Positions 1-62,359 are shown, counted from the stretch's first letter. The stretch is 64,000 nucleotides of DNA from Psammoneis japonica (GCA_008632985.1 QPGO01000257.1:1-64000), one strand, 5' to 3'. Notes: generated by a model not told the origin, from the sequence alone. Made by a program: numbers and translations.

Positions 1-3000
1 CAACGCAAACGTCAGTCCGGTGGTCATCTCTCTGTTCGCCGGGGGTGACTTGTGCAAGAAACCGCGATGTTGCAGCCATGTGTCCTCTCAGTCAACCAGA
101 TGTCAACCAAAGGCATGCCAACAACGAAAAGATCTACAACCCAGATTGCAACCCGCTGGCGCCAGTCTCCGACAAGAACCGTGTGGGGACTTTGCAGAGT
201 GCGCATGGGCTTTCCAGCAAATCATTCACATTGTGCCGCACACAGTGACGCCCTGTGTGGTCACACACAAAACTGCAAAATTTGGAAAGGTGCTTCCGGC
301 ACATGAGCTCCGCCGTGATTGCAGCGAACCAAGTTCGAGCAATGCCGGTGCATCCTTTGTCACCGAGGAACACGCGCTCGGGCTGTTTGCATTGCTCACA
401 CACACCAAGATGGAGGGCAACAATGCGGACACAAGGGTGCAATTGATGAATGTGAAAGACAACTGGAGCAGTCGGCAGAAGGGACTTTTCCTGACATGCA
501 CACTTCATGTGCTTTTGGATCAACAATGCAATTCTTTGAGGAAGATGGCAAATTTTGAATCCTTGCACAAAAGATTGCGAAACATCTTGTGCCAAACTTT
601 TGTCATTCAAAACGCAAATTTTGCCCCTTTCATGCACTGCAAGAACAAGACGACACGCAACAAATCTGTTCTTGTGTTGGAGTGCAAGCTGATGTCACAA
701 GCAATTGCAGCCATTCGGAACTCCTTCCTCAATGGACAGCACCGCGTGTTGGGCGTTGACCTGGCACTGATGCAGATGTTTCCCCCAAGGCAATTCAGTG
801 AGTTGTTGGGGAAAAAATTGAATTGTGAAGAACAAGCACTCATGGACAGGATGTCAAAGAGAGCACCATTGGCGATGTTGTCTCCGTGCGTTGAAGAAAA
901 CTCCGAACCATGCATCAAGCATGAATTGTTTGGGGAAAGAAGTTTGTTCCTTTGCAAAAGACACAGCGAGGTCATCCAAGCCGACACCACATCGGGTTCA
1001 AGGCGAAGCTTCAAGGACGTTTCAGTCAGTTTGCTCGACGACGCGCAACTGAACACGCACAAATGGATGTTGGGTGAGCTGCGATGCAGGAAGGTGGTCG
1101 CAGACGAGGAGGCGATGCAACCGAAGGAGAAAGGCAGTGACGGCGTCAAGCACATCGAAGCGCACGAAAAACTTGGGAAAATGGTGCTCAAGCATCTGTT
1201 CACCTCCGATTGCGAATCTGCAAAGGCCGTGGTTCAAAAGGCAAGGGAGGACACCAACAGGAACCTCGGGCTGGGTGGTGATGTCGACAAAGCAGGAAAG
1301 TTCGCCGATGCAATGACCCAAACCTTGTGTGAAAGGAAATGTCCCGGGTTGCACAACAGCACAAAGCCGACGAGAGAAAGGGCCGGCATTGCCGGACTGA
1401 TGATGTTGTTCACGAATTTTGTTTTTGACAGCCAGTCCACTGAGATGTTGAAACAAGTCATTAGAAGATCCCACCAATCTGAACCCACCCCACTGGAGGG
1501 ATTGCGATTTTCGTTTGCGACGGAATTTGGAGAAGGAGAAGATGGAAAAGTCCTTCGCGACTGCACAGTGCTGAACAATTTGGCTGAAAACGTGCAGGGA
1601 GAGGTGATGGGCCTGTCAACGGAGTTCCTGAAGGCGGAAACCGCTGACAATGATGGACACACGGCAAGACAATTCCTTGCTTTGGGATCCCACCATGGTT
1701 TCATTCTCGAGAAACGGTGCTTGACATTTGCTCAATCACTCCTTTCCCGCAACATTGCAGGGAACAAAAAGGGGCAAATTGTGTTCGGTGAGTGTCAGAG
1801 CAACGGAAACACATGACAAGTGAAAACCGCGAATTGTTTGGTCGTGTGCCTGATGACTAAATTTTTTTTCTTTTCTTTTTGAAGGGAATTTTTGCAAATC
1901 TCAACGAAACCAATGTTTCCAAGAGCGGTTTGCCCAAAGCCGCACTGTGTGTCTTTGATGTTTGCATCAAAACACAGGTCATCCTTGGTTTGACGATGAC
2001 AAAAATGGTGCAGTGCGGAAAAGGGAGGTGGACCGACAAAAACCTGCGTCCAAAGATGCTGGCCGGTGCCGGAAAGGCAACAATGGAGGCATTTTGTCAC
2101 TTCGGAGATGTGATCCCCGTCAACAAATGTTGGTTGGATGCTGGTGTAGAAAATCACAAAACGTTTCTTTTCGAGGCAATGCTTCCCGAAGAAATGTCTG
2201 GTCTCGACGATGACGAACAGGAGGCATTGAGCGAGGAGCCCTTTCATGAATTGATGTTTCGCGATGACACAAACTGTCCAGAGAAAGTCACAAACATGCC
2301 GCAGATGGTTGCGTTCATTTGCGAATGGTTGACAAAGAAGAAGAGCCTCAAACTGCTCTCTCTGATCGAACACCTGGAAGAGCCAGGGAACATTGTGGCC
2401 AACGAGGCAAACCAGAAAACAGTCTCCACCAAGACTTTGTTCCCAAATTTGAAATCGATCCAGTCGAGAAGGGCAGCGGTGAGTGTGACCGAGAAATCGA
2501 CACCACGTCGTCTCTGTGTCGCACGGTCTGTCCTCGTCGGCTTCGATTCTGCGGAATCGACACGCCATTGCACCGATTTGGTGTTGTCTGTCTGTGCATC
2601 GGATTGTTTGCAGGATCGGACACCAATGTGTCTGTTTTGCGGTCCCCGTCTAACCTGTTTGGTGATTGTTTCCACGCAGGAAATGAAAAGCATGCCAAGT
2701 TAACCTTGAAGGAATTGACTGAGGAGATTTGCATGGCAGGCATGAGCGATGTGTACGATGTGGCAGTTTCAGACGGAGTCGAGCTCAACCACCAAAGGCT
2801 GAAGAAATGGTTGGAAGAACCAAACAAGAGACTCATTGAGGTGGTGGGGAAATCAAAACAGAGCAAGAAAAGGAAACGGGATGATGAGGACGAGCCCAAC
2901 GAAGAAACTGCTGCAAAACCTGCCGAGAAAAGAAAACGCAAGAGAATGAAGTGGAACAAGAATTCCGAGATGCACAAGTCCGTCAGTGGTGCATTGGACA

Positions 3001-4819
3001 ACACCCTGGATGCAGACAACAGCCGACAGGAGGCTTTCGTGAAGTTGCAACAAGAGCACGTTAGGACCTGTCAAACACAGGCGGCTTTTGGAACAGCCCA
3101 TCTGCTGCCTGCAAAGCAACTCTAATCTGACAGTGAAGGATGTGAAGGAACAGATTCACTTCAGAGGATTGAACAGCGAAGACGAGGAGGACACTTTTGC
3201 ACCTGAAGAGCAGGAATCGGAGCAGACATTCAGAGTCACCTGCAAAAACTACGAAGACGCGATGAACCAAATGCGTGGCACATCTCCAAGGGTTGTCAAC
3301 TGCCGGAATTTCCAAGCTCTTTTTGATGAAGACACAGAGACAAAGAAACGATTTGAACATGAGTGCGACTTGATTCACAAGAACTTCAGCAAGGCAATGC
3401 CATGGGCACGCAACAACACAATGCGCAATGGATTCAAGAAGGAAAGACTGGAGAACGAGGACAAAATGAGAAAGACGATTTTGGAAGACAGAATGAAGGA
3501 AGAGAGCGAGAAAAGGAAGGCGAAAAAGAAAAAAAGCAGGCAAAGAAGGACGAAGCGGCGCGAGCAGAGGTCACAGCGGAGGGACAACAAGGGGGAGACG
3601 ACGACGAAGGGATGATGGACACCACCTTGGCAGACCTGCGGCACCAAGATGGGAGCACACAACAAGTGGGTGACGATGCAGCCGGCAAGCCCACAGTGGA
3701 ACATGACAAGGAAGCGGATGAGGAAGAGGAGAAGGAGGAGGAGGCACCAGAGCAGAAGGATGAGGAGGAATCAAGCGACAACAACGACAATGATGATGAT
3801 GACAAAGATGGAGATCACACCCCAGACAAAGACGGAGATGGCACAAACCCTCAAGATGAAGAAGAAAGGAAAGATCGTTCAGATGAGGGGGGCGATGGAG
3901 GCACCGGCCAGTCGCCAGATGACAAAGCGACTTCTGACAGAGACGGAATGTCAGAGGAGAACGACCATCAACAGGGGGGCAAGGAAATGACAAAGCAGAT
4001 GAAGAGGAACCGTCTGCTGCAAACCCTGAGCAACAGGTGGAAGAGGACGAACAAAACATGGATTTTGCTGGGAGTGACGCAGATTCGAAAGACGAACCCC
4101 TTGCAAGAGGGAGTGACAGTGACAGCAGTTGCTCCCTCCTGAATCGAATCAACCAAGTGCCGCGTTCTGCTGCAAGGAAAAGACAGCGGAGAATGGATCT
4201 GGTCTCCTCATCCTCTGAATCATCCTCTGAATCGGAGATTGACGAAGCAGATGATGACGACCCTTCAAGTGCTGTGGCTGCTGCCAAAGTTTCAGCCAAG
4301 ATGAAAACCCCGTCAAAAGTGTCTGAACCACCAAACAAGCATGGGAGCAAAAGAGTTTTTCGGAGAACTCCGGATCGTGAGACAAAAACAGACGCAAAGA
4401 AACGCAGGGCGAAGGCGCTGGCCGAAATGGAGGAAAGAAAGGAACAGGCAAGGAGGAAGAGAATTGAGGCAGACAAGAAAAGGGGGGGGAAGGCGGCTGC
4501 AAGAGCAACGGCAATGGAGGCAAAGAGAAAGTAAATGGAAAAAATGAAGAACGCCAGCAAGCCAAAGAAGGACACGCCGCCGACAGGAAGAATGACGGCA
4601 GAACAACCCCCACCCATCCAAACGAATTCGTCAAAGAAAAAAAAACGTGCAACTGCCCGCGGAACAAAAAACAACCAAAATGAAGTTCAGGCAGTTGGGC
4701 ACATGCATCGACCACAAAAATGTGTGCGGGGAGCATCGCAGTCTCAAAATTGCTGCATTGCTGTGAATCCCGCAACATTCATTGTCCACTTTTTGTTTTT
4801 AGGTTTGTGGCGATTTTAG
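1..4819 (+). pseudogene. Core gene, copy 1 (5'-partial, frameshifted); intron about 1788-1884
   Basis: Same protein as copy 2; GTGAGT donor, GACTAA branch-like site, pyrimidine tract and AG. Confidence 0.6.
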
Positions 4820-4881
4820 CATTCAGTTGCTTGTTTCAGGTGTTGCTTGTGGTCATGCTGTCAGTCACAACATGTGAAAAC

Positions 4882-5093
4882 GATGCTTGACTGATTCGAT
4901 GTGTGCAATGACTTGTCCTGAGTTCGACTGTGGATGAGAAATGGACACGGGTGCGCATCGATTTGGCATGGTCTGTCCTTCAACCGTGGCCACTTGGCAT
5001 CGATCAGGTGGGGTCTGTCATTCAACCGGAAGCGTTTCCCACCACCTCATAACCCAAACCCAAACCCTCCCATCCCAAATGCACCATGTGTAA
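4882..5093 (+). repeat. ~210-bp terminal module E (other copies: 14404-14609, 14687-14764 partial, 17838-18043, 18121-18332, 30072-30283, 38901-39049 partial, 51886-52204 with internal duplication)
   Basis: Contains a hairpin, two GGTCTGTC(C/A)TTCAACCG repeats, an (AAACCC)n tract and the fixed end. Confidence 0.85.
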
Positions 5094-8000
5094 TTTCACA
5101 GATTGCTTTTACAAAGTCAAGCTTTTCCTCGACATGCCAATGCAAAACTGCAGCGGGAGACTTCTTCCATCCGTTGTCACTGGTCTCTTTGTCGCCGAAA
5201 CACGTCTGCATCAAATCAGCTGTAAAAACAAAAAATCAAAAAAGACACTTAACGGTGAAAAACAACGCTTGTCAAAATGGGACCAGCTGTGGCTCCATTT
5301 GGCCACAGAGGCAAGTCATTGGCAAACGCATGTTTTACCTTCATGGGTGATGGGCTCCCTTCCTGACTTTGTGTGTGTTGACTGCGGGTTGAGATGAATG
5401 AATTCGTTAGCCTCGCCGACGGTGGTGGGGAACTGCAACAGAGACACGTGTCGAGTTGGCAATTTGAGTGTGACCGATCCCCTCTTCGCTGGCCTTTTGA
5501 CTGTTCTACAATGCCACTCCTTGTCGCACATTGAAACAACGATGGAGCAGAGCATTTGGATCATGTCTCGAGTTCGTTCATCGCTCATTTCACTCAGTTC
5601 ATCATTGTCGGGTGTGTCGAAAACAGACACAGAGAAGTTGTTGTCTGTTTCTTTTCCTTCACTGCAACAATGCAAAACACGCTTGATTCGAGCCAGGTTC
5701 TCTACACATTGTAGAGGACAAGTCATCTCACCCAAAAATGAGGCAGCTTTGATTCTCGAGTGCGGCTGGGAAGAGGTGGAGATCAAGCTCCTGCTCGATG
5801 TGGGGGCATTGGTGCTTTTCAAAGGCAACAGTGATGGGCGAACTCCATGGCCCAGCCCGGTCCACTGTTTCACTTGATCATTGATCTGCACACGCGACGC
5901 AACCGGGACATCGTAACATCCAACACCCCTTGTGCCCATGGCTGTGTCGAGGATGCGTGGTTTGAAAAATCGTGGGTTTGTCAGCATGACGGCATGCTCC
6001 GCTTTGGCACAACAAGCAGCTCTGACACTCGGTGACAACTGAGTTGCGTCGAGACGTTCGTTTTGCGGGTTGTTCTTTTGAAGGTCAACAAGCTTTTTCA
6101 AAGCTGGAAAACACCGATCCTTCGACTCCCTGCAGCAACGCAACAGATCTTGTTTCTCCACATGTCTCATGCAAGTCATTAGAAAGGGGGGATTGCACAC
6201 AGGCCACTGAGGTCTGGTTGCTGGTCGGCTCAGTTGTCTGCCTTGCTTGATGAAAGATTGTTCAATCATGAGTTCCATCAGGGGCCCAGTCACGTGAAAA
6301 CACCCTTCAAATCTTGCGGTGTTTCTGTCAAAGGCTTCAAGCTGTTCAATGATGCAACTGACGTGACCCTCCATTTCTTTTGTCAGCTGTGACAATTTGG
6401 CAGTGGCTTCTTGCAAACGATGGTCTCCACCCTTGCCCAGCAGAAGGTTTTCGACAACAGTGGGCAAACTGTTGATTTGTGATGCCCAATTCTGTCGCAC
6501 ATCTGACCTTGCACAGTGCCGGGGTCATCGGCATGTAATGCTGAGCACCGGCCAAGAGGAATTCCTCACGTGGGTTTTTTACAGTGACGATGAGACCCGT
6601 TTCCACAGATCATTTGACGCGAACAAGCACATGCCCGGTGGACACATTTCCAACGAGGTTGCGTGTGGCCATTTGTTGGAACTTGGTTCCAGACTTCCCT
6701 GTGCGTTCGGCATCTTCAATGATTGAAAGTCCATCCATGGGAGGAGGATGGCACGCCTCGTCATCTTCCGCCACACTGATGTCAGCGTTTTTGGGTTCGA
6801 CATCAAGAATCCCATCCAACTGCATCTGGTTGAGGAAGGCTGTTCGACGCTGAGCCAACGTTTGTGCACTCGGCCTTTGATTTCTGCATTCTGGAAGAAA
6901 AAATGGATGCAAACACATGGCTGGTTAAACAAACGAGTGCCATGTGGGACTGTTGACAGTCCCATTTGGGAAATGGTTATGAGCACAAACAATGGGCAAC
7001 AAATGCAGCAGGTTGTCACTGGTTGTGAGCACTGTCGATTTGGGACCAGAGTTGGTCCCATTTGGGAATGCTTGGACCGGTTGGGAAAAGGACATCACTC
7101 ACCACTCATTTTGCAATTCATCAAACTGTCAACACATCTGGTTGCACTGTCCATGTCGAGCACCAAAGATCCATCATCGGATGGAGCCATGTCCAGCCCA
7201 AAGTCAACGAACAGACATGTGTCATCGGCGAGAGGGAGCTGCTCCATGTCGACAATTTCTCCCAAACCACCTGACAAATCTGTCAAGTGATTTTTGCACT
7301 TCTGGACAAAAAGCGTTTCAGTTTCGTGCGCATCATTGTCGATCTTAAAGTTGGATCTGTGTTCACCCGCATGAGTGTCGCTGTCATTGCCGCCCTTGCC
7401 ATTTTCGTCGCGGTCATCCTCGCTGTCATTGCCGCCTTTGCCATTTTCGTCGATGTCATCATCGCTGTCATTGCCGCCCTTGCCATTGTTGTCGCTGTCT
7501 TCATCGGATTGATCGTTGTCAGGCACTCGTTGGTTTGATTCCGGCGACCACACCTTCTTGAAACTTGTCAACTGTGAGTGCATTGTCCTGACAATGTCAA
7601 AACACACATTGATCACCGCAATCATCTCATTGGCAAAGCATGCGTCATCTGGGATGCAGCTGCAACCGACAAAGTGAAAGCAAACAAACATCTCAACACC
7701 AGCCTTGCATGTTTTGATGGTTGCAATTTGAAGGCTTGGCATCCTTTCAAGAAGAACCTGATTGGGTGCCACACCGCGAACCCGAACGGGAAGATCAAAT
7801 TCATCTCCACAAATGGCAAAACGAGTCGATTTGGAATTGTGCACACGATCCGTAATTGAGTTGAAGTGGATTTCTGCTTTGCCATTGACGGCAAGCAGTC
7901 CCACCATTTCGGAGAGGTCCGGTGAAATCGAGCAAAAGGAGTTGGCACCAAAGTGTAAATCAACATCCATGCCCGGTTTGAGAACAGCCAAATCCAAGTC

Positions 8001-8144: not shown

Positions 8145-8148
8145 AAAA

Positions 8149-11100
8149 ATCCATTTGTCGAATGGGAAGGTCCGGTTTCTGGTTGGCCAAGTTGACATTA
8201 AAAAAAAAAAGCAGTCAGCAGGGGGCGTGAAATCGATGCGATCCCGCATCGATGTGGTCTTGGGCGAAATTTTCATTGCATCGAATCGGAGAGGATGTCA
8301 GTCACACAGCAAAGGAAACCAGTGCGTTGCTCAACGGAAAAGTGATGATGCACGCATTCATCAATTGACGAGTCAAATCACAGTTCACACGGGTTGCGTC
8401 CATCACGCGGGAAAAAGGCAACAAACACGAACAAAACAACGAAAATGAAACACAAAAAAGAAGACACAACACCATGAATGTGCCGAGCTCGTCACTCACA
8501 GCACAAGACGATCCCGGCGGTGACCATCATTGTGCGCCAACAGGCACAACTGTGAAAACTTGCTGCAGGGGGGAGGACGGTGCCGATTGGGTGTTTGTGG
8601 ATGCCTTGCCTCATGAGTTTAAAGAAAACAAGGAAAAAGGGGGCACTCACAACGAAATCTGCGACTGGTGGAAGGAGGACGATCACCATGGCATTCGTTT
8701 GCGGTTAAACAAGAAATGGGTGGCCAAGGGCAAAATGCCAAACTGAAATGGTGAGCATGCGTTGATTCCCGGTTCCTGGTTCCATTGTTGAAGTTTGTGA
8801 CCATGCGTCACTGCATCCGGCATTGTAAAAGCGTCTGTCCGACGTTGCGTGTTACACGAGATGGAGACAATGCCGTCTCCATTTCACACGGTCTGTCCGT
8901 CACCAAGTTTGTTTGGAAAAATTGACACGTGCCCGCACCGACCATGCACCGGCGTGAGGATGTCTGTCTGACACAGCGTGTTGTGCAAAATGGAGACGAC
9001 GCCATCTCCATTTCTCACCAGGGCGACAAGAGTTGCCAAACAACATTTTGACCTTTTTTCCCTTGTGCAACCAACAGCAAACAGGCGTTGAGATTCCACG
9101 CAGCCGTCAGCAAGGACGACAGGGAAATGATGAAAGACCTGATCGGCGAAGAATGTGCAATTGGAAATTTGGTGGGAACCTTGATGTTGCAAGAGATGGG
9201 CAGTCCTGGGTGTGTGGCAGCAGCCCACAACAAAATCACACCGATTGATGAAGAATTGACAGTGGAGCAGGTGCACACCATTTTCAGGGTCATTTGTGGC
9301 AAAGTGATCGTGAAGGACGCAACAGTGCCAAAGAATCCGATGGGGGATGTGAGATCAGATGATGAGTGCTTCAAGAAATTGGAGCCACCGTCATGTCCCC
9401 TGTCGAAAGGTGTCCCCTACAAACTGAAGGAATTCACCAACGAAGATTGGGAAAAACTGATGAACAAATGAAAGAACAACAGAGAAAAGGGGGCAGACAT
9501 GGGAGATTGCTTCGACAGGGTCAACGCAAACGTCAGTCCGGTGGTCATCTCTCTGTTCGCGGGGGTGACTTGTGCAAGAAACCGCGATGTTGCAGCCATG
9601 TGTCCTCTCAGTCAACCAGATGTCAACCAAAGGCATGCCAACAACGAAAAGATCTACAACCCAGATTGCAACCCGCTGGCGCCAGTCTCCGACAAGAACC
9701 GTGTGGGGACTTTGCAGAGTGCGCATGGGCTTTCCAGCAAATCATTCAACATTGTGCCGCACACAGTGACGCCCTGCGTGGTCACACACAAAACTGCAAA
9801 ATTTGGAAAGGTGCTTCCGGCACATGAGCTCCACCGTGATTGCAGCGAACCAAGTTCGAGCAATGCCGGCGCATCCTTTGTCACCGAGGAACACGCGCTC
9901 GGGCTGTTTGCATTGCTCACACACGCCAAGATGGAGGGCGACAATGCGGACACAAGGGTGCAATTGATGAATGTGAAAGACAACTGGAGCAGTCGGCAGA
10001 AGGGACTTTTCCTGACATGCACACTTCATGTGCTTTTGGATCAACAATGCAACTCTTTGAGGAAGATGGCAAATTTTGAATCCTTGCACAAAAGATTGCG
10101 AAACATCTTGTGCCAAACTTTTGTCATTCAAAATGCAAATTTTGCCCCTTTCATGCACTGCAAGAACAAGACGACACGCAACAAATCTATTCTTGTGTTG
10201 GAGTGCAAGCTGATGTCACAAGCAATTGCAGCCATTCGGAACTCCTTCCTCGATGGACAGCACCGCGTGTTGGGCGTTGACCTGGCACTGATGCAGATGT
10301 TTCCCCCAAGGCAATTCAGTGAGTTGTTGGGGAAAAAATTGAATTGTGAAGAACAAGCACTCATGGACAGGATGTCGAAGAGAGCGCCATTGGCAATGTT
10401 GTCTCCGTGCGTTGAAGAAAACTCCGAACCGCACATCAAGCATGAATTGTTTGGGGAAAGAAGTTTGTTCCTTTGCAAAAGACACAGCGAGGTCATCCAA
10501 GCCGACACCACATCGGGTTCAAGGCGAAGCTTTAAGGACGTTTCAGTCAGTTTGCTCGACGACGCGCAACTGAACACGCACAAATGGATGTTGGGTGAGC
10601 TGCGATGCAGGAAGGTGGTCGCAGACGAGGAGGCGATGCAACCAAAGGAGAAAGGCAGTGACGGCGTCAAGCACATCGAAGCGCACGAAAAACTCAGGAA
10701 AATGGTGCTCAAGCATCTGTTCACTTCCGATTGCGAATCTGCAAAGGCCGTGGTTCAAAAGGCAAGGGAGGACACCAACAGGAACCTCGGGCTGGGTGGT
10801 GATGTCGACGAAGCAGGAAAGTTCGCCGATGCAATGACCCAAACCTTGCGTGAAAGGAAATGTCCCGGGTTGCAAACAGCACAAAGCCGACGAGAGAAAG
10901 GGCCGGCATTGCCGGACTGATGATGTTGTTCACGAATTTTGTTTTTGACAGCCAGTCCGCTGAAATGTTGAAACAAGTCATTGGAAGATCCCACCAATCT
11001 GAACCCACCCTGCCGGAGGGATTGCGATTTTCGTTTGCGACGGAATTTGGAGAAGGAGAAGATGGAAAAGTCCTTCGCGACTGCACAGTGCTGAACAATT

Positions 11101-43911: not shown

Positions 43912-44301
43912 GACGCGTTCCAGCCGCAGGTGGGACTCCGTGTGACATTGGGCCCGTAGAATTCTACGTGCAAGCTCCGCAGTACGAGAATTCAATCAAT
44001 GGACATGTTTGTCTTCAACATCAAATAAATGGCCAAGTTTGTGGTGCAATTATGCCTCTCACCACTCGACTTTTTTGCAAGTGCGCCTGCCCCACGCGGT
44101 TCTTAAGACATCACAGAATCGCGCTGCAACAAAAAATGTCAAAAGTTGTTGGACGGATCGCTCAACAAGTGCACCGTAAAATGACACAAAACATCGAAAA
44201 AATCACGTAGAAATCTACGTGCACGACATACGACGTGATTCAAAAAACTGTCGATGTCACAGTTCAGCAGTGCGAGGTCCCACCTGGACCTGGAACACGT
44301 C
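43912..44301. mobile_element. MITE copy D
   Basis: TIRs; TSD AGGA. Confidence 0.92.
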
Positions 44302-49688: not shown

Positions 49689-52204
49689 GGAGCAAGAATT
49701 CCGAGATGTGCAAGCCCGTCAGTGGCGCATTGGACAACACCCTGGACGCAGACGACAGCCGACAGGAGGCTTTCGTGAAGTTGCAACAAGAGCACGTTGG
49801 GACCTGTCAAACACAGGTGGCTCTTGGAACAGCCATCTGCCACCTGCAAAGCAACTCAAATCTGACAGTGAAGGATGTGAAGGAACAGATTCACTTCGGA
49901 GGATTGAACAGCGAAGACAAGGAGGACACTTTTGCACCTGAAGAGCAGGAGTCGGAGCAGACATTTGAAGTCACCCATGAAACCTGCAAAGACGCGATGA
50001 ACCGAAGGCGTGGCACATCTCCAAGGGTTGTCAACTGCCGGAATTTCCAAGCTCTTTTTGATGAAGACACAGAGACAAAGAAACGATTTGAGCACGAGTG
50101 CGACTTGATTCACAAGAACTTCAGCAAGGCAATGCCATGGGCGTGCAACAACACAGCGCGCAATGGATTCAAGAAGGAAAGACTGGAGAACGAGGACAAA
50201 ATGAGAAAGACGATTTTGGAAGACAGAATTGAGGAAGAGAGCAAGAAAAGGAAGGCGAAAAAGAAAAAAAAGCAGGCAAAGAAGGACGAAGCGGCGCGAG
50301 CAGAGGTCACAGCGGAGGGACAACAAGGGGGAGACGACGACGAAGGGATGATGGACACCACCTTGGCAGACCTGCGGCACCAAGATGGGAGCACACAACA
50401 AGTGGGCGACGATGCAGCCGGCAAGCCCACAGTGGAACATGACAAGGAAGCGGGTGAGGAAGAGGAGAAGGAGGAGGAGGCACCAGAGCAGAAGGATGAG
50501 GAGGAATCAAGCGACAACAACGACAATGATGATGATGACAAAGATGGAGATCACACCCCAGACAAAGACGGAGATGGCACAAACCCTCAAGATGAAGAAG
50601 AAAGGAAAGATCGTTCAGATGAGGGGGGCAATGGAGGCACCGGCCAGTCGCCAGATGACAAAACACAACAAGTGGGCGAGGATGCAGCCGGCAACCCCAC
50701 TGTGGAACATGACAAGGAAACAGATGAGGAAGAGGAGAAGGAGGAGGAGGAATCAGAGAAGGATGAGGGTGAAACACGCGACAACAACGACAATGATGAC
50801 GATGACAAAGATGGAGATCACACCCCTGACAAAGACGGAGATGGCACACCCCCTCAAGATGGAGAGCAAAAGAAAGACAGTTCAGATGAGGGGGGCGATG
50901 GGGGCACTGGCCAGTCGCCAGATGACAAAGCGACTTCTGACAGAGACGGAATGTCAGAGGAGAATGACCATCAACAGGGGGGGCAAGGAAATGACAAAGC
51001 AGATGAAGAGGAACCATCTGCTGCAAACCCTGAGCAACAGGTGAAAGAGGATGAACAAAACATGGGTGTGGCTGGGAGTGATGCAGATTTGAACAACGAA
51101 CCCCTTGCAAGCGGCAGTGACAGCAACAGCAGTTGCTCCCTCCTGAATCGAATCAACCAAGTGCCACGTTCCGCTGCAAGGAAAAGACAGCTGAGAAGGG
51201 ATTTGGTCTCCTCATCCTCTGAATCATCCTCTGAATCGGAGATTGATGCATCAGATGATGACAACCCTTCAAGTGCTGCAGCTGCTGCCAAAGTTTCAGC
51301 CAAGATGAAAACCCCGTCAAAGGTGTCTGAACCACCAAACAAGAATGTGAGGAAAAGAGTTGTTTGAGCAACTCCGGATCGTGAGACAAAAACGGACGCA
51401 AAGAAATGCAGGGCGATGGCGCTGGCCGAAATGGAGGAAAGAAAGGAACAGGCAAGGAGGAAGAGAATTGAGGCAGACAAGAAAAGGGGGGGGGAGGCGG
51501 CAGCAAGAGCGAAGGCAATGGAGGCAAAGAGAAAGGAAATGGAAAAAATGAAGAACGCCAGCAAGCCAAAGAAGGACACGCCGCCGACAGGAAGAATGAC
51601 AGCAGAACAACCCCCACCCATCCAAACAAATTCGTCAAAGAAAAAAAGACGTGCAACCACCCGCGGAACAAAAAACAACAAAAATGAAGTTTGGGCAGTT
51701 GGGCACATGCATCGACCACAAAAATGTGTGCGGGGAGCATCGCAGTCTCAAAATGGCTGCATTGCTGTGAATCCCACAACATTCATTGTCCACTTTTTGT
51801 TTTTAGGTTTGTGGTGATTTTAGCATTCAGTCACTTGTTTTGGGTGTTGCTTGCAGTCACGCTGTCAGTCACAACATGTGAAAACGATGCTTGACTGATT
51901 GGATGTGTGCAATGACTTGTCCTGAGTTCGACTGTGGATGAGAAATAGATGCGGGTGCGCACCCATTTGGCATGGTCTCTCCATTGACAGGAGCAAATTT
52001 GTGTCAATCGCTTTGGCAAATGCATGTCATAAGGTCGGCTGTTGATGAGAAATGGACACGGGTGCGCATCCATTTGGCATGGTCTGTCCTTCAACCGTGG
52101 CCACTTGGCATCGATCAGGTGGGGTCTGTCATTCAACCGGAAGCGTTTCGTGCCACCTCATGACCCAAACCCAAACCCTCCCATCCCAAATACACTATGT
52201 GCAA
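49689..52204 (+). mobile_element. Large repeated element, copy 5 (left-truncated, ~2.5 kb)
   Basis: Homology starts at ggagcaagaattccgag. It ends cccaaatacactatgtgcaa, the least mutated version of the terminus. Confidence 0.8.
50393..50930 (+). repeat. 270-bp tandem duplication of the acidic segment, specific to copy 5
   Basis: acacaacaagtgggcga at 50393 and 50663. Confidence 0.9.
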
Positions 52205-52960
52205 TTTCAACAATGGACTCCTCATGCAAGACATGGGAAAGAAATGTCTCGATGTCAAAAGGGACGCTGGCGGCACCGCCAACTTTCATCACGTTCAACA
52301 GTTCAGGCAACGTCCCGCTGAAGAAGAAGCGCGGGTTGAATCTGCAGCTCAACCAACCCTTTTGCAACCAAAAGCAATCCAAGTTGATTTCCTCAAAGTC
52401 CCTTCCGAGCTTTGTGATGACCTCGTTGCAAAATGCAGGGCTGCGTGCACCGCAGTTGAGGTGATGGGCGTTGTGACAGTCGCTTGGAGAAGCTGTGCAA
52501 AGTTCACAATCAATGGTGCGGTTGGTTGCATCAAGCACAACATCACAACAGGCAAGTGTCCTTGTTGCATCGGATCTCAGTTTGGAATTTCCACTGAACA
52601 AGTCACCGTTGATGTCGTCAAGCACATTTGTGAACGACAGAGAATCAATGTTGTTCATCTGTGTCATGCACAAAAACAACACCTTTGTTTTCTTCTGTTG
52701 CGCCGGGAGATCCAGGCTCTCTTGAGGTGATTCCCTCATGTCGTTGAAGTCCAGTGATTCAGAGTCACAGTGTTTGTCAGCACCGTTGGGAGGAACACCT
52801 CTCTTGTCCTTGGGACAACTCAACTCTCGTTGTGCCGCCGACTTGTTGACATCTGAGCCAAAATCATTTGGGGGTTGAGAAAATTCTTCTTCCTCTGATG
52901 CTGCATCTTGATTTTCCAAATCACCCAGGTCTTCCCCAGGCACTCCAGTTCTTTCAAAGT
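52205..52960 (-). pseudogene. Unknown gene or exon Q2, paralog of Q1, truncated by the element terminus
   Basis: HLNC...FEEINLDCFWLQ...RF in ORF 52158-53069. Confidence 0.5.
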
Positions 52961-52989
52961 GGAAGAACAAGAGAGGCAATTGGAAAACA

Positions 52990-55500
52990 TCCAACGCAAA
53001 GCACAGTTTGGTGTTGAAACTTGCCCCTCCACCATGATGGGAACAGCGCCCCAATGTCCAGCACCACATCGCTTCACGCCAGGGGCAGCATCATCTCCAA
53101 TGAGCATGAAAATGTGCTGACCATGAGCGCAGTGCTCTTCAATGATGCCCTCAACACGATTTGGAGCACGCCAGTCACAGAGGACACATTCCCTGCTGGA
53201 GCCACTGTGATGCTCCACTCCATGTTCGACCATTGGCAAGTCAGCACACGCTGCACAATCGTTGGGGTCCAAGTGCTCTGACTGCTTTGCGGCACCAAGT
53301 TTGGACACAGGACAAACAAGATTTCTCAAATCAGGGTGGGGATGAACAATGATTCCTGCGCCAACCAGCATTTGGATGACCAACATCAAACGAAACTCAT
53401 TGATGTCGGCTCCTCTTGGGAATTTCTTGATTGCCAGCCAGAAACGCATCTCCAGCATGGCATGGTGGAAATCCGGAGAGCCGGTGTGATTGTCAATCCA
53501 TTTCAACAAATCAAGAATCACCGCCACCATTTCATCCACAACACCTGACATCTCGAGGCGATCAAGCCAGAGATCGCCCTCTCCCTCAATGTCTGTTTCA
53601 GTGTTGTCGTCAGCAGATTCTCTGGCACCGAGAATGTCTTCAATGTCAGCATCATCAGGGAGAACTTCTTTCTCCAAGTTGGACAAAGAGACCAGGCAGG
53701 TGTGCTTCCAGTTGCTTCTTGCACAGGTGGGTTCATCTGATTTCCTCTTGCGGCCAGTGGCAGAGGAATCTTTGCAGCAGGTCTCAACAAAATTGCAGCC
53801 GCTGGGGTTCAGACGGTGTGGAGCAACTCCTGCATCTCTGGCGGCAGTGCCAAACAGCTTCATGGCCAGTTGACAGCAGACAAGTGCAGGATCGGAACTG
53901 GGTTCAGTCAACTTGTCCCTGTGCTCCATGCCAATGTGGAAGAACCGGTGGAGTCCAGTCTGATGAGAAGCCATGATTGCCATCTTGACAACCTTGTGGA
54001 TTCCAAGCACATCTCGGAGTTGGAACAGGATGGTGACCCCCATTGACAACCACAAATCCTGAATGCAGGAGGTGGGAAACTCCAACCTGTCCATGACAAA
54101 CCAACCAGCCTTGTCGAGTGCCTTTTCCTTGCATGGGCAATGATCATCGAGAAACATGTTCTCGGGATGGCGGTGGCTCCAATCTTTTTGTGGACCATGA
54201 GGACCCTTGTGCGACAAAGAGAACTCCTTGCACGCGCGATTTATGGCTGTGACGTGCTTCAGCATCATTGTCTTCAACAGCAGCAACATCAGATGCTTGT
54301 CAAAATGTTCGCCCGCACACTTCCGGCTGTTGGCAAGGAACTTGACAGAAACAACATTCCCCAACTTGTCCAGGATGAAAAAACACAGGGCTCTGGTCTT
54401 GGTGTGTCCACAAAAAACACAATTTCGATCATCTGGATGAATCTGCGCACCATCAGGCATGATCTCAGCTTGGACAGTGCCAAGCTCATTCCTTGCTGCT
54501 TTGCAACCCAGCCCAGTGCGAAGTGCGGCCCGACACATTGCAGTTCTTGCGGTGTTGTTGCAGGGTCAAGGATTGCCAAAGTGCTCCATCTCCAGCTCAT
54601 CATGGCACCTCTGCATGGAATCGCACACATCCGCAAGCATGGACTTGATCTGATTGCAGATGACGACGTTTTTTTCTTTCTCAAAAATTCCAAAACCGAC
54701 TTGCAGTGATGGGACTTTCTTGCCATTCTTGAGCACATTGTGAGACAGACCACAGCAGCCAAAATCAATCTGGCCCCGTTTGTCTGGCTGCTTGGACCAA
54801 TCTTCGTTGTTTTTCTTGCAGCACATGATCTTCCCGTCATGATTGGGATTGGAACAGCCGTGTTCAAGGACAAAACGGGCAATCATGCCGACATCAACTT
54901 GGAGAGATCCAAAGTGTTTCTGCCAAAGATGGGAGGATGAGCGCAAAATGGCAGCGTCATCCTGAGTGCGCTGACCTCTGGGTGGGACAACTGCTGGCTC
55001 CTGGTCATGATTTGCGGCAGAAGGAAGTGGTTGCATCATCACAAAGGAATGGAGATGATGTCGCAGATCATCAAGTGAGCAACAGTCCACTGGAGAATGA
55101 CGCAGGTTCAACTCACAATTGGCAGATTGCTTGTTGTCATCATCGTCGTAACCCAGATCATAAAAAATGCAAATGCAAGGAGCATGCCTTGAGACATCAG
55201 AAAGGGACGCAAAGCGACAACAATGACCATGGGGGAACCAATCGTCGATTGACGAGGAAGTTTTGTGCTGGCCAATGTGCTTGGCTTTGATGGAGATGCT
55301 GAAGAAGTGACTCCTCCGTGGATGGACCCACAGCACTGGCATTGGGAACATTCTGGATGGGGTGGTCTTCAGTCAATGATTCACCCAATGATGATGACTC
55401 TCCGTCCAACAACGCCTCGACTTTGTCTTCAGCCGAAGGTTGCAACTGGGAGGCAAGTGCACTCATGGAGTGATTGGTGGACGGTGGGGCATCAGCCATG
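52990..55500 (-). pseudogene. Unknown gene P2, paralog of P1
   Basis: ORFs 54566-55351 and 52820-54538. Boundaries approximate. Confidence 0.55.
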
Positions 55501-55802
55501 GTGCCGGTTGGATGAGCGACAGGATTCTGGTTGGTTTCTTTCTTGGATGAAGTGGGCGGATGTGCCAGAGAACCAGCAGACACACTGGAGGACTCCTTGC
55601 TCTTCTCCCTCCTCTTGGTGGAAGAAACAAACTTTGCCTTGGCCGCACGGGAAAGGCATGGATGCGTGAGATCGCGGACACGTGATCGCACAATTGCCAG
55701 GTTGCGGAACTTGAGACAATTTGTGTCCTTGCAGGAACACTTGAAGGTGGAGTAGAGCTCATGCTCAACCAACTCTTGGTGTTTTTGTGCCATGCCTTTT
55801 GC

Positions 55803-56091
55803 CAAAAGACTGACCCAACAGCTGCAGGACAAAGGCATTTGAGGCATTTGGCGAGGGCAAGGCAACACTTTAAGAGCTGTGTTTTGGCTTTGATGGGTTC
55901 ACATGGTGCACTTGTGCCCCCACATTGCTTGCAGCTTTTGCAAGTGCAGAGTTGTTGTGGCTGCACAGCCACAAGCAAGAAACCCACCCAAACCAATGGG
56001 GTTGCTCCTTGTGACATGCAGAGTGCGTGCAAAAGCCACAAGTGCAAGCCATTTGGCAGAAGTGACTTTCTGCTCTGGCACTGTCTGGCAC
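55803..56091. repeat. ~290-bp direct repeat, second copy at 59374-59661
   Basis: Apparently identical sequence. Confidence 0.9.
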
Positions 56092-57199
56092 TTAGGCTTG
56101 ATTCTGGCAGTTACAACAATCAAAGACTGGGGCTGTGAGATCAGCAGAGGGTGTCCAGTCATGAGTCTCGATGAACTTCTGGCAGCGGTGCTGCGTCTCG
56201 ATGATTTTTTTTTAAATTGGGACTTCATTGTGCATGGTCGTCAAGAACAGAAACATCGCTTCCGTCTAAAGAATCGGCACCCACATCATCTTCATTGGGA
56301 TGAGAAAGATCACCAGCACAACCGTCAAGGTCTCCGGATGCAGACGGTGCACTGGCATGATCATTGCCTTGAGCAGATGAGTCGTTGCCACCGGAGCAGT
56401 CGTCAGAGCTGAGATTGACGTCATTGGAGAGGTTTGCCGCCATGTTGGATGATGTCAAAAAAATGTCATTGAGCGAGCCGTCATGGTCTGGAGACGTGAC
56501 AAAGTGGTGCGATGGGCAAGTTTCGCATTCGGCGGCATCCCCAAATGACTCAGAGCCAGAAGAGAGACATTGCTTTCACTTGGGCGTGACTTTGAGATGG
56601 GGCATGGTTGCAACAGCAGGAGAGGAACACCGCCATGGGCTGTCGCGGCATGAACAGAGGACACATGGAAACCACGGACTTGTTGTCACACTCTTTCGCA
56701 GTTCTGCGCAGATTCGCCAAAACCACAGGGGATTGGACCCACAGATCACAAGTGGAAGGGACAAATGCCCCAAACAGGATCGCTCGGGGGAACGGCGCAG
56801 ATGAAAGATTGTGACTCGGCAGAGAGGAGGGGGTTTTGGGGGAGAGCAGAAAAGGGTGGAAAATTTTGTGGAATTGTCAACATCCATCATGAGGATGGAG
56901 ATGCAGAAATTTTGGCAAAAATGCCTTGTTCAACATGAAAATGAACATTTTTCAGCTGGAACGAAGTGCAACTGTCCCCAGTTGAGGGAATGACAGTGCC
57001 GTGTTACTTGGCATTTTGGCACACAAGTCAATGAATGTCAATTAAATGGAATGTGTCGTGGAACAACAAATGCCTGACACTCCAATCTGCAAATTGAAAA
57101 TGAACAAAAATGTTGTCTTTCCAACAAGCAAACATCAATTTCAATCTGGAGTGGGACCCACCAATCTGGGTGTGCACGCGCATGCCATGAGATGGTGGG

Positions 57200-57420
57200 G
57201 TTCGATGACTTGCAACTGAAGGCCTTTTCTGCGGGCCTCTGATGCATGGGAACCAGACTTGCCACCACACTGTCCTTGAGCATTTCCCTGCTTTGCCAAG
57301 GGGGGCCTGTTCCAGGTCATCAATGCTGGCAAAACCCTGACGATTGACACAGCTGCATGTCTGGGGATTGCATCCACAGCGCACAAGAGCAGCACTGAAT
57401 GCCTTGGCAGCAGCCATGGC
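57200..57420 (-). pseudogene. Possible gag-like N-terminal remnant of an LTR retrotransposon
   Basis: MAAAKAFSAALVRCG...QGFASIDDL resembles, from memory only, N-termini of diatom Copia-type gag proteins. No pol or LTR found. Confidence 0.25.
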
Positions 57421-58301
57421 GTGTGACACACAGCTTGCATTTAAAAGTGTGTGTTTGAACTTGAGCAAGTGAAAATCATGTGGAGTTCAGTGCACTTCAG
57501 CGAATGCTGAGAGCAAGCCCATGAGCACGTCAGCTCACCATCTCACATTGCAGTCTGCACTGGTTGATGCAAAACTGATGATGACACACATGCAAAATGC
57601 AGCCACAACAGCAACCTTCACACAAACAATGATGTGATGGCTGCATTGTTGTCCAAATGTTCACATGCTCAGCCAACACATTTCATTCCTGTGATCTGAC
57701 ATGTTGCACTCCAACAACACATTCAACGGATCAATGCTCTGGACTCAAAGAGCATTTCGTTCATGTTCGTGAACACAAATGCATGCAAAGAACTCAGCAA
57801 TTGCACAAGCAACCATGAGACCAACATGGCGCATGCACACAGAAATTGATCAATTGCAATGATGCCATTGTGCCATTTGCAATGCCCATTCTCTTGCTTT
57901 TGTTTTTGTTTCAAGTCAAAAAACCGTTGTGGATTTGCCTCCGCAGCCAATCCATTTTTGTGCTTTTGTTCAACTGTCTTGGGAACAAATGTGATTGAGG
58001 TGTCCTCTTTCAGAACATCCTCTTTCAGAACATCCTCTTTTTTTTCCCAGGCTGCCCAGCCTTTCTCTTCCATTCCGTCTGGCCCTTTTTTGCTGGGGAC
58101 ATGCTTTTCCTTGAACCTCACTTTTCCCAAAATGAAGCAAACAAAAATGCTCCACATGCACTGGCAAGATCACATTTCTCCAAATGCAACCCGCAAGGGA
58201 AAAATGTCTGTTGTTCCATTGACGGCTGTGGTTGTCATGTGCCCAAAAATGCTCCATGTGCAATTTTTGAGAGAAACATGTCTCTCTTGTTCCATTGGTG
58301 T

Positions 58302-58800
58302 CTGTGGTCATTTGTGTGCCCAAAAATGCCCCACATGCATTGTTGACAGCAAAACCTCAAAACGAATTTGGCAAAGCGTGTCAAGCACATGGCATGCGTT
58401 GACTTGTTTTTCTGCAAGACATTGTTGATGTCATGGCCATCGCCTCCTCAGAAGCTGGAAACAAAAGAAAGGGTGAAGCAAAGGAAGCAAGTGGTGAGTC
58501 TGTTGTGTCACAAGAAGTGGAGTTGACCAAGTTCAAAGAGTGTGAAAAGGCCGCTTGGTGTCTGTGGCAATCAATGTGCCCAAAAAAGCTCCGCATGCAT
58601 TGCTGAGAGCAAAATCATCAAACCTTCAATCTCAAAATGAATTTGGTGAAGTGCACCAAGCACACAGCATGCATTGATTCATCTCACTGCAAAACATTGT
58701 TGGCATCATGGCCGCTGCCTCTGCAGAAACTGGAAAGAAGAGAAAGGGTGCTCCTGATGAAGCAAAGGAAACAAGTGGCAAGTCTGTTGTGTTGAAAGGC
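58302..58800. repeat. Diverged ~260-bp tandem duplication
   Basis: ctgtgg...tgtgcccaaaaa...catgcattg...gcaaaggaa at about 58302 and 58562. Confidence 0.7.
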
Positions 58801-59761
58801 ATGGAGGAGATGGATGAGTTTGAAGATGTTGAAAAGGCTGCTGGCAGGGCACATGCAGAAGTCACACACAACAAGTGAGCCTGAAAGCCACAAGATTGAA
58901 CAGGTTGTCGAAGGTGACAAAACCATCTGGCATGTGCCGGAAGATTTTGACAGTGATGACTTTTTCTCTGATGAGGACAACATTTGCATGCCATGTGAAC
59001 TTCCAACTGCAAGCGATCTTCCCAACAAGCTCCACTGCAAAAAGCTTGTTGCAGCAGGTGTGCCCACCGTCTTGGTGAAGACCATCAAGGACTCGACTTG
59101 CAACCCCATTCATTCTTGTTTTGTCCCCAAATGTCTGGACGTGCTTTGTCACATTTCCAACCATGAACACCAGCTTGGCATCAATGTGACAGCTGGCACC
59201 AATGCATGCATCAAAATGTTGAATGAAAACTGATGCAGTTGGCTGTGTGTGCTTCAATGACAAGGTTTGGCAAAAGCGACCATTTTCTCGTGTCACAATC
59301 TTGTGCTTTTCCCTGCATAAATTTGGAACCCATGCTGGCACACCCAAAAAAGCAATGTTGCGCCGATGTCCCCAAAAGACTGACCCAACAGCTGCAGGAC
59401 AAAGGCATTTGAGGCATTTGGCGAGGGCAAGGCAACACTTTAAGAGCTGTGTTTTGGCTTTGATGGGTTCACATGGTGCACTTGTGCCCCCACATTGCTT
59501 GCAGCTTTTGCAAGTGCAGAGTTGTTGTGGCTGCACAGCCACAAGCAAGAAACCCACCCAAACCAATGGGGTTGCTCCTTGTGACATGCAGAGTGCGTGC
59601 AAAAGCCACAAGTGCAAGCCATTTGGCAGAAGTGACTTTCTGCTCTGGCACTGTCTGGCACTTTGCCACCAGGTTTCTCCCTCTGTTGGCTGCCCGCTCA
59701 AGAATGAAACAACCCCCAGATGGCCCCAGTCAACCTGACAGCTGCAGACAGAGGGCAACGG

Positions 59762-61028
59762 GATGGGCTCCAGTCCTGGGTGGGACTCCATGTGACATTG
59801 GTCCCGAAGAATTCTGCGTGCAAGCTGCGCAGCAAATTTGTCAAGCAATGAAAACACAAATGACCGCCAACAGAAAAAGCGGCAAGTTTGTGAATGCTTC
59901 TCCTCCTCCACAATTGCAGCGCATCATTGACAGCTTGCCCGGGCATGTTCTGCAGACATCAACCCTTCAACCACTGGACACAGTGAATGAAGTGATTTCA
60001 GATGTGCGCAACATTTCATTCACGCGATTTTGTTTTGGAACGCACACTCGCCAAAAATCTGGGGGAACCCTTTTTGCAATTTAGAAAGTTCAATGTCAAC
60101 TTTTGACACCGGGCTTTTTGCAAGCTTCATCCATGCATGGAGAGGAGCTAAATCTGAACCTCAAACAATGGAGGCCATCATGAGTTGCTGTCAAAAATGG
60201 AGCATTGACACCACACCCTTGGAGCAAATCTCCGCTGGTGGAAATTTGCTTGCAAAACAAGCAAATGCACGTGGTGCACTTTGCATGGATTGTGTGCGAC
60301 ATGACATTTTTGTGCCATGTTCACTGCATTGTTGCACAAGTGCATGACACGCCACAAATCCTCAAGCAGAGCAAATCTCCACACCCGTGGAGATTTGCTC
60401 CCTGTGGAGATTTGCTCCCCTGGTGGTTGAAAGGGTTAAAGAATGCACCCAGAGCATTTTCATTCTCATGAGTGTTGAAAACAGAAAGCCTTTGGCCTTG
60501 CAAAGTGGGGAGCACGAAACAATTTTGTAGAGTGTCACGCAGAAAACTGCGCGCACGACGCGTTCCAGCCCTAGGTGGGACTCCGTGTGACATTGGGCCC
60601 GTAGAATTCTACGTGCGAGCTCCGTAGTACGAGAATTTAATTAATGGACACATTTATCTTCAACATCAAATAAACGCCCAAGTTTGTGGTACAATTATGC
60701 CTCTTACCACTCGACGTTTTTTGCAACTTCGCCTGCCCTACGCGATTCTTAAGACATTATAGAATCGCGCTGTAACAAAAAATGTCAAAAGTTGTTGGAC
60801 GGATCGCTCAATAAGTGTACCGTAAAATGACACAAAATATCGAAAAAATCACGTAGAAATCTACGTGCGCGACATACGACGAGACTCAAAAAACTGTCGA
60901 TGTCACAGTTCAGCAGTGCGAGGTCCCACCTAGACCTGGAACGCGTCGCACGACGTGCCGTGATCCAAAAAAACTCTTGATGTCACAGCACAGCAGTGCA
61001 AGGTCCCGCCCAGAGCTGGAGCGAGTTG
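59762..61028. mobile_element. Older, longer relative of the MITE family, hosting nested copy A
   Basis: Left end gctccagtcctgggtgggactccatgtgacattgg; right end gatgtcacagcacagcagtgcaaggtcccgcccagagctggagc. The TSD is not clean. Confidence 0.65.
60557..60947. mobile_element. MITE copy A (391 bp, TpA intact)
   Basis: Perfect 12-bp TIR GACGCGTTCCAG, extending imperfectly to GGTGGGAC; TSD GCAC. Confidence 0.92.
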
Positions 61029-62359
61029 TGGGTGCTTTTGGCGCACACAAGGAAGCACATTGAGATCTGTGGTGCAGTGCAGCAAGGGCCGCATGGTCAA
61101 CTTGTGATCTCATGTCATCTCATGCCCGACCCCGGAGGAGAGTTGAGCTTCAAGTTGCAGCTGTGATGAGCGAGGTGGGCAGCTGCAAAAAAGGAAAGAT
61201 TGGTCCAAGAGGGTCAGAGGTGTTTGCCATCAAGGCTGACCACAAAGAGCTCAAGACTCTCCATGCAGCAATGAAGGAAGCTGCCACATTCTTGCAATTT
61301 GAGCAAGCTGCAGATGTGGGGAAGTGCAGTCTTCCCACATGGAATGTGCCATCATCAACGCATCGGTGTCATGGTCATAAAAGGGAGTGCACAGTTGCTT
61401 TTTTCATGTGTGTGTTTTTCAAGTTTGTGCGACCTTCGCAGCTGCGTGTGCCACGTGAAGATTGTTCCTCAAGACGCGCCCCGTCACAACATTTCTGACA
61501 CCCACCATGAGATGGACCCATGATGGTCAGATGAGAAATGTGGGTGTTCGGATCACCAAAGGGACCCCAAAGACACCACAATTTGCACTCAATGCTCGAT
61601 TTCGACCAAATGCACACTTTTTGCCATGCCCGAGTGTTGCCTGGTGAATCCGTGGAGAATTGCACAGTTCTAGCTAGAGTGAGACAAATTAGTTCTACAG
61701 TGATTATGAGCAAAAATGTCCGAAGACAACGTGGGACATTAATGAGTCATTTTTGAAAGAAAGAGTCATTAATAAGTTGTGCAATGTTAATTTTCGTGTA
61801 TTTCTTTAATCCTCATTTATCAACAAATAGTTGCAATGATCACATTTAGTTATTTTCGGGAATGTTCCCAGATCAAAAATTGTTCTGTACAGCACTGTAG
61901 TTCAAGGTGACACACGTCACACCCTTTACAACCCGAAAGGAGACTGCCACTTTGCCATGAGCTAGCAAGCAAGGTCTGACAGTCTCAGAGACAACGACGC
62001 ATCCGCATTATAATCATCGTCGTCCAGATCAGGTTTTGATTTGAAAGCCCTCCAACCAAGAAGAACAGTCATGTTTCATGAAGGACCGTAGAGAACACTC
62101 ATGGGGCGGAACTTTACAAATGATGATTTTAAAAGGCAAGCATCCGCAGAGTGAGCGTTAGTAGGAAGCTTGCCATCAAGGTGTTCATGCGCTTAGCACT
62201 CAGCGTCTCCTTTTCTTTTGGAATAACAACTTCCAACGCAACAGCTCCGAACCAATGCAAAAGTCCCTTAAGAAGCCACTTTTAATTGCCAAGAATTCAA
62301 GGTCGCGAAAGGGTTGCGGTGCCCATTGTTCCATTTTATCCCAACAGAAATACTAGCGT

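Follow-up and report, generated by a model that had tools for sequence, protein, structure and literature searches.

Depletion of TA in favour of TG and CA in a block of about 61 kb containing repeats, transposon copies and dead genes

Organization of the locus

The window, which is the whole stretch of DNA analysed (64,000 nucleotides), contains a block of about 61 kb in which the dinucleotide TA (TpA) is nearly absent and TG and CA are enriched. It is followed by a short flank where part of a gene encoding a class C G protein-coupled receptor (GPCR) is located. The best explanation for the block is that it consists of silenced DNA, in which repeats are found together with transposon copies and dead genes. 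The block and its larger features are:

1-61670, no strand: TA-depleted, TG/CA-enriched block with a TA observed/expected ratio (O/E) of 0.06, which continues past the left end of the window and has a sharp right edge
1-5095, plus strand: copy A of the large repeat family
9522-14612, 25967-30290, 34019-39060 and 49689-51990: other copies of the large repeat family, the last of which (copy E) is partial
14764-21315, no strand: large inverted repeat, with arms at 14764-17472 and 18615-21315 that are 98.3% alike
26821-27431, no strand: assembly gap (N)
57889-59276, no strand: single-copy-depth stretch, covered by one contig at unique depth, with no TA in 1388 bp and a CG O/E of 0.25

Dinucleotide composition of the block and its edge

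By dinucleotide count, the block shows 223 TA, which represent 0.37% of its dinucleotides, where 3872 are expected from its base composition and approximately 2400 at the O/E of the flank; about 94% of the TA expected from composition is missing. The block also contains 5734 TG (O/E 1.58), 5779 CA (O/E 1.49) and 2602 CG (O/E 0.71). The flank (61671-64000) contains 111 TA (O/E 0.62), and its O/E values for TG, CA and CG are 1.10, 1.21 and 0.86, respectively. Across all 2-kb windows from 1 to 58001, TA O/E ranges from 0.01 to 0.14. The depletion is therefore a genuine observation, and it confirms an earlier reading of this DNA made from the sequence alone (hereafter the sequence-only reading), in which TA was said to be almost absent over about 61 kb and normal in the adjacent GPCR gene. 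The adjacent unique gene has a normal TA content. A lack of Tyr codons and of the stop codons TAA and TAG is an automatic consequence of the lack of TA. The Tyr counts given in the same reading were also reproduced: the 441-residue GPCR open reading frame has 13, and the 800-, 598- and 572-residue frames of the block have no Tyr at all.

When the block is compared with the O/E values of the flank, it lacks 2185 TA and 612 CG and has an excess of 1680 TG and 1043 CA. The summed deficit of TA and CG (2797) is close to the summed excess of TG and CA (2723). The GC content is 49.5% in the block and 44.5% in the flank. Position 61378 holds the last TA inside the block and TA is dense from 61671 onward, which places an abrupt edge at 61670/61671. 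The neighbouring transcript ends about 140 bp away (61810, so far as can be seen from the contig of run X2).

AA and TT are also raised in the block (O/E 1.30 and 1.42; flank, 1.08 and 1.16), and A/G differences preceding A or C are frequent among the repeat copies (AA/GA 50, AC/GC 40). Neither TA loss nor CpG loss accounts for these two observations.

Transposon copies of different age

The block contains at least five copies of a 391-bp non-coding element with terminal inverted repeats. The 4-bp target duplications that flank them differ by copy (GCAC, AGGA, TGGA/TAGA, AACA and CCTT), so the element is a transposon and each insertion is independent. The copies are:

60557-60947, plus strand: youngest copy, with target duplication GCAC and a normal content of 25 TA
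43912-44318, plus strand: older copy; 15 of 25 TA lost (12 to CA and 3 to TG), 10 TA in the copy
33099-33487, plus strand: older copy; 16 of 25 TA lost (4 to CA and 12 to TG), 10 TA in the copy
42722-43133, plus strand: older copy; 20 of 25 TA lost (10 to CA and 10 to TG), 5 TA in the copy
39715-40119, plus strand: old, heavily diverged copy, 62% alike; 1 of 25 TA kept, 3 TA in the copy
59762-59892: transposon fragment

With the youngest copy as reference, all 51 TA losses in the three older copies are changes to CA or TG, and TA gains in the reverse direction number 0, 1 and 0. The same three copies lost CG at 5, 4 and 7 of 30 sites, and their background changes are 8 of 276, 10 of 276 and 8 of 278. 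Per site, this corresponds to a loss of 60-80% for TA, 13-23% for CG and about 3% for the background. At 10 sites, the TA, TG and CA states are all seen among the copies. The process changes the TpA step only, to CA or TG, and its rate per TA site is several-fold above those of CpG and of the background. Among the copies, the TA count drops in step with the CG count and with overall similarity; this joint fall fits decay, and would not fit a gain of TA in the youngest copy of the kind produced by fungal repeat-induced point mutation (RIP). Composition is normal in the patch around the youngest copy (60530-60965), with a TA O/E of 0.82 and a CG O/E of 1.6.

Several further observations concern this element. 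It holds two short palindromes, CGTAGAA(A/T)TCTACG, whose TA sites are lost last. The two halves of one target duplication (at about 33095-33098 and 33488-33491) read TGGA and TAGA; since both halves were identical at insertion, the TA/TG difference arose afterwards and represents a dated site. Immediately on either side of the youngest copy, the segments 60966-61030 and 60535-60556 are leftovers without TA, similar to the right end of that copy and to one of its internal motifs, so that the youngest copy seems to have landed in or beside an older, already edited copy. In the public DNA run X1, the summed contig depth of the transposon is about 105,000-132,000 against about 50 for unique DNA (approximately 2000-fold). 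Run X3 (0.16 million letters) covers the youngest copy only, at 60608-60947, in pieces of 47-154 bases, and would fit a small-RNA library aimed at an active element.

Differences among the large repeat copies

The repeat unit ranges from 5 to 9.5 kb, and BLAST segments among the copies are 93-98% alike. Differences amount to 2.4-3.5% within copies A-D and to 4.7-7.0% when one member of the pair is the partial copy E, and they fall mainly at CG and at TG/CA. Only 3 of 28 TA sites are conserved among the copies, against 167 of 285 CG sites and 74-88% of the sites of other dinucleotides. Because TA is found in any copy at only 28 sites, most of the TA loss predates the duplications; the loss went on after them. 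Sites at which one copy has TG and the other has CA number 10-27 per copy pair, where 1.0-2.5 are expected through CpG under a simple CG-ancestor model fitted to the CG/CG and CG/TG+CA counts, and TA/CG pairs were found in none of the 10 copy pairs. CG is thus not the ancestral state at most of these discordant sites, and decay of CpG driven by 5-methylcytosine was rejected as the sole cause. In four of the five classified copy pairs, 23-36% of the difference events are linked to TA and 40-50% to CG; in the arms of the inverted repeat, which are the youngest pair, the counts are 4 and 15 of 39 events, respectively.

CpG decay is real as a second layer, as the sequence-only reading had held, and is slower than TA loss. 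Among polarised singletons of four copies, C>T is found at 31 of 181 and G>A at 26 of 183 CpG positions, while the values in other contexts are 0-7%. At TpA, A>G is found at 3 of 9 and T>C at 1 of 9 positions, and A>G at ApA at 8 of 411. The site variants quoted in that reading as traces of an ancestral TA are present in the window (TGTGTC, TACATC, CATGTC and TGTGTC at one site; CGC, CAC and TGC at another). Of its three site examples, however, the one with CGC, CAC and TGC is explained more simply by CpG decay, because one copy keeps CG.

Dead genes and their homologues

In the block, 14 open frames of at least 400 codons are found, against 0.26 expected from 100 second-order Markov simulations. 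Long frames are partly a by-product of the loss of TAA and TAG, but this excess indicates that some of them are former genes. Two have intact homologues:

21252-23684, minus strand: 811-codon frame, a dead gene of an unnamed family with 15 homologues (P0007-P0021, best E value 5e-48) and no Tyr
52823-54565, minus strand: 581-codon frame, a dead gene with one intact homologue (P0028, 61% identity)

P0028 contains 19 Tyr, and all 15 that are aligned correspond to Cys (9) or His (6) in the 581-codon frame; Tyr to Cys is the most frequent mismatch between them. Tyr makes up 3.0% of the homologues of the 811-codon frame and is missing from the frame itself. At the 10 columns with a Tyr majority the frame shows His three times, Cys three times, and G, L, W and F once each; the four columns in which Tyr is invariant among the homologues all read Cys or His. 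The intact homologues therefore carry Tyr, rather than Cys, His or Arg, opposite the Cys and His residues of the block at 15 of 15 positions for P0028 and at 6 of 10 columns for the 811-codon family.

The homologues of both dead genes are unnamed proteins from environmental contigs of 1.6-14 kb. Several of these contigs are 4-5 kb long and encode a protein of 900 to 1000 residues; they may be small mobile elements or transcripts. No Pfam family reached the cut-off in 125 frames of the block (11 of 12 plus 113, in overlapping sets), where three sub-threshold matches had E values of 0.004-0.007, nor in the homologues of the 811- and 581-codon frames. No homologue was found for a 604-residue frame, including in IMG/VR, and the ESM Atlas gave no usable match for the 581-residue frame or P0028. 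The 811-residue family shows no sequence match in PDB (best E value 0.23), and its AlphaFold model, with a predicted local distance difference test score (pLDDT) of 67.7, shows no fold match at an E value of 0.001 or below in PDB or BFVD. Scans of the genomic context of the homologues, including those for viral contigs, found nothing, and Rfam and tRNA scans of the window gave no matches.

Read support and targeting

The TA-free sequence also appears in contigs of run X1, at a depth equal to that of the unique gene. A 1378-base contig covers 57889-59276 with eight differences and a depth of 53, against about 51 for the GPCR gene, and no second contig matches this stretch at 85% likeness. Across 52001-58000 the summed contig depth of the same run is 230-1200, a measure that does not equal copy number. 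An artefact caused by base modification that is read differently on each strand was rejected, since the TA-free contig is found at full unique depth and mixes TG and CA.

In the sequence-only reading, the hypermutation was restricted to repeats. This is too narrow, given that the single-copy-depth stretch 57889-59276 has lost every TA. Conversely, the copy of the high-depth transposon family at 60557-60947 is unmutated inside the block, which argues against induction by repetition. The stripped single-copy-depth stretch and the spared high-depth copy together indicate that present repetition is not required and does not suffice. The targeting is better matched by the time that a sequence has spent within a marked domain, and the untouched insert fits an episodic process.

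Sequence preference

TA followed by a pyrimidine (TAY) is lost faster than TA followed by a purine (TAR). When the surviving TA sites are classified by the 3' base on each strand (R, purine; Y, pyrimidine), 83 are RR, 106 are RY and 9 are YY, while the control TA sites of the flank and the young insert show 27, 74 and 35, respectively (chi2 39.4, p 3e-9); the result is unchanged without the transposon copies. In the transposon, the base located 3' of the changed A is T in 14 of 27, C in 20 of 48, A in 11 of 42 and G in 6 of 33 strand-opportunities (p 0.019). In the transposon copies, no preference was found for the base 5' of T (p 0.22). The natural site of TadA is U-A-C, which is compatible with a preference for TAY, and ADAR enzymes favour a 3' G, which is the opposite.

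The CA:TG ratio varies among the three older transposon copies (12:3, 4:12 and 10:10; chi2 9.4, p 0.009).

The neighbouring gene

61810-64000, minus strand: class C (7tm_3) GPCR gene, with its last exon from 63673 to the stop codon at 62360; it runs past the window and has a TA O/E of 0.62-0.67

This gene contains a 75-bp intron (63674-63748, GT..AG), which is skipped by the contig of run X2. The 441-residue frame starts at 63685, inside the intron, and the gene extends upstream past the window. Its best homologues are 33-37% identical and all unnamed. Run X2 covers the GPCR gene only, and no inference on expression of the block was drawn from it.

Proposed mechanism and alternative explanations

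That TA is the ancestral state and was converted to TG or CA is very likely. The transposon copies, the Tyr residues of the outgroup proteins and the mass balance agree on a targeted T:A>C:G process at TpA, as the sequence-only reading had proposed. The complete explanation, a TpA-specific process that acts on silenced DNA, together with its presumed chemistry, is probable. According to this explanation, a transition at the TpA step would occur on either strand (TA>TG or TA>CA), to near saturation, by mutation in place on DNA after insertion or duplication. The process would halt within a few bases of the block edge, and ordinary CpG decay would proceed alongside at a lower rate. As to the chemistry, an ADAT2/TadA-type enzyme, or some other deaminase, may act on the adenine of 5'-TA on DNA and convert it to hypoxanthine, which is read as G. 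This enzyme would be brought in episodically, to a chromatin domain by which foreign or silent DNA is marked. The adenine-deaminase step taken separately is the most likely chemistry, although at slightly less than even odds.

Several points weigh against this explanation or narrow it. The net G+C gain calculated from the mass balance (+1573) corresponds to about half of the 5-point difference in GC between block and flank. Run X1 is possibly the assembly's own data and, hence, not independent support. The control set for the context of surviving TA is small (136 sites). A direction bias is significant in none of the 14 comparisons of large-repeat pairs, which show only local runs (copies C and D: 9, then 3), so that bursts on one strand are only a hint. 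A foreign origin is shown for the transposon copies only, and the large open reading frames show no Pfam, PDB, BFVD or IMG/VR match. Finally, a change of the thymine opposite the adenine gives the same products, and sequence cannot separate the two.

This last point is the basis of the main rival to adenine deamination, in which the thymine of 5'-TA would be oxidised or modified by a TET/JBP-type enzyme in silent chromatin, with mispairing to G or misrepair leading to T>C, seen as TA>CA on the affected strand and as TA>TG on its complement. The products and their palindromic symmetry would then be those of the transposon copies, and 5-hydroxymethyluracil is enriched at TpA in some protists, which counts in its favour. 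There is, however, no sign of modified thymine in the window, and the authors of a preprint on the marine alga Bigelowiella natans prefer adenine deamination, with an ADAT2-like candidate (Mettrop et al., bioRxiv 2026; 10.64898/2026.01.13.699255). On this evidence we consider thymine modification unlikely.

An error-prone polymerase or repair process confined to heterochromatin, for instance one with A>G errors at WA of the Pol eta type, would account for a domain-wide effect with a sharp edge, and A:T transitions with a 5' T match half of the WA motif. Such a process should also raise AA>AG, which is not observed (A>G at 8 of 411 ApA against 3 of 9 TpA), the 51 losses in the transposon copies are all at TA, and the de novo changes described in the preprint text are at TpA only (10.64898/2026.01.13.699255). 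This makes it improbable.

Still less credit can be given to A-to-I editing of double-stranded RNA from the repeats by an ADAR-type enzyme, fixed by reverse transcription or RNA-templated repair. The inverted repeats of the block could yield double-stranded RNA, and ADAR prefers a 5' U, as is also cited in the Discussion of the preprint (10.64898/2026.01.13.699255). The 3' preference is nevertheless reversed, with G the base least often found next to a changed A and TAY lost faster than TAR. No reverse transcriptase domain was found in the 125 frames of the block scanned (overlapping sets), and the affected DNA includes a transposon of the cut-and-paste type and a stretch of single-copy depth. 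The main region described in the preprint text is, in addition, single copy and mutated in place (10.64898/2026.01.13.699255).

The absence of any mutation, with a TA-free donor genome, selection against TA or a sequencing or assembly artefact instead, is hardly credible. In its favour, repeat copies that are 93-98% alike all lack TA, so that most of the loss came before their duplication. Against it, copies of one transposon span from 25 TA to 3, and Tyr of intact homologues are replaced here by Cys or His, which damages the protein and is unlike selection. Moreover, the same contigs show a normal TA content in the young insert and in the flank, with a depth that is not split by strand. GC-biased gene conversion was rejected as well; it has no specificity for TA and does not predict the TG/CA discordance.

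Comparison with known systems and significance

The sequence-only reading knew of no described mechanism, but the 2026 preprint independently describes such a process in B. natans, where integrated viral DNA undergoes TpA>TpG/CpA hypermutation that is observed as de novo changes (10.64898/2026.01.13.699255). It was the sole relevant paper found in full-text searches on TpA, hypermutation or RIP. In mutation-accumulation lines of B. natans, 231 of 302 nuclear mutations fall in an integrated giant-virus region and a virophage region; 230 of them are A>G or T>C changes, each located at TpA (10.64898/2026.01.13.699255). Mutations arise there at about 6e-7 per site and generation, only some lines mutate, and 124 clusters of 1-kb windows poor in TpA and rich in CpA+TpG, mostly unannotated, are found across the genome (10.64898/2026.01.13.699255). 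Its authors propose adenine deamination, with an ADAT2-like protein as candidate; DNA activity is cited there for a few ADAT2 proteins only (10.64898/2026.01.13.699255).

As far as the text of the preprint goes, B. natans and the block analysed here share the dinucleotide, the two products and the signature of low TpA with high CpA+TpG. In both, the changes are confined to foreign or unannotated blocks that adjoin normal genes, and in both the process appears to be episodic, judging by the untouched young insert here and by the subset of mutating lines there. The B. natans changes are de novo in a single-copy giant-virus insert with 3.3% TA, whereas the block is nearly saturated (0.37%) and consists of repeats and transposons. 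With the thresholds of the preprint, and with its rho formula taken as the usual observed/expected ratio in our own reading of its Methods, 61 of the 63 scorable 1-kb windows here pass for TpA (rho_TA of 0.43 or below) and 29 pass for both measures, with a longest run of 9. The TAY bias, the CpG decay, the strand hint and the series of copies go beyond the text of the preprint (figures and supplements aside), in which 'CpG' does not occur and 'strand' occurs twice. Judged against that text, the kind of process is already described, and the locus is a further, near-saturated instance with added detail; what is new here is the near-saturation, the faster loss of TAY than of TAR, the co-located CpG decay and the sharp boundary.

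On the doubtful side, and as a tentative proposal, the TpA editor may be, rather than a device specific to viruses, a general, domain-wide defence that acts on silent, probably CpG-methylated, DNA, including the genome's own transposons and relics of single-copy depth, in strand-biased bursts, with a preference for 5'-TAY and a stop some 140 bp short of an expressed gene. If so, it would be the adenine-directed counterpart of RIP and of APOBEC editing, and, if the window is not B. natans DNA, the system would exist in a second lineage. The rewriting of one dinucleotide in chosen DNA, in a direction that raises GC, is very unusual. The locus offers an end state of this process with a built-in clock, in the form of transposon copies of different ages. 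The co-located CpG decay hints at one chromatin mark that guides both processes, and the preference for TAY over TAR speaks for a TadA/ADAT-like enzyme only in so far as it is compatible with one, while it counts against an ADAR-like enzyme. Together, these features of the locus give concrete starting points in the search for the enzyme and for the signal that targets it. A natural DNA adenine editor specific for TA would interest the base-editing field.

Among the other systems, RIP of Neurospora and other fungi is also defence-like, introduces a single kind of transition at a single dinucleotide and inactivates the genes of the DNA that it selects. It converts CpA to TpA and lowers GC, whereas here TpA is destroyed and GC is raised, and it requires duplicated sequence, whereas here a single-copy-depth stretch was hit and a high-copy insert was spared. 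Fungal RIP was therefore rejected: TA O/E is 0.06, CA O/E is 1.49, GC is 49.5% against 44.5% in the flank, and a stretch of single-copy depth is stripped of TA. The decay of CpG through 5-methylcytosine also feeds TG and CA and is present in the same block, but it cannot remove TA, accounts for about a tenth of the TG/CA discordances and is several-fold slower per site. TadA, ADAT2-ADAT3 and the TadA-derived base editors target an adenine preceded by U or T, as would the process proposed here; TadA and ADAT2-ADAT3 act on tRNA, and the context found here (5' T, 3' pyrimidine) would be compatible with them. APOBEC and AID likewise represent context-specific editing of invading DNA by a deaminase, possibly with strand bias, but they change C to U, whereas the process in this block changes A:T pairs only.

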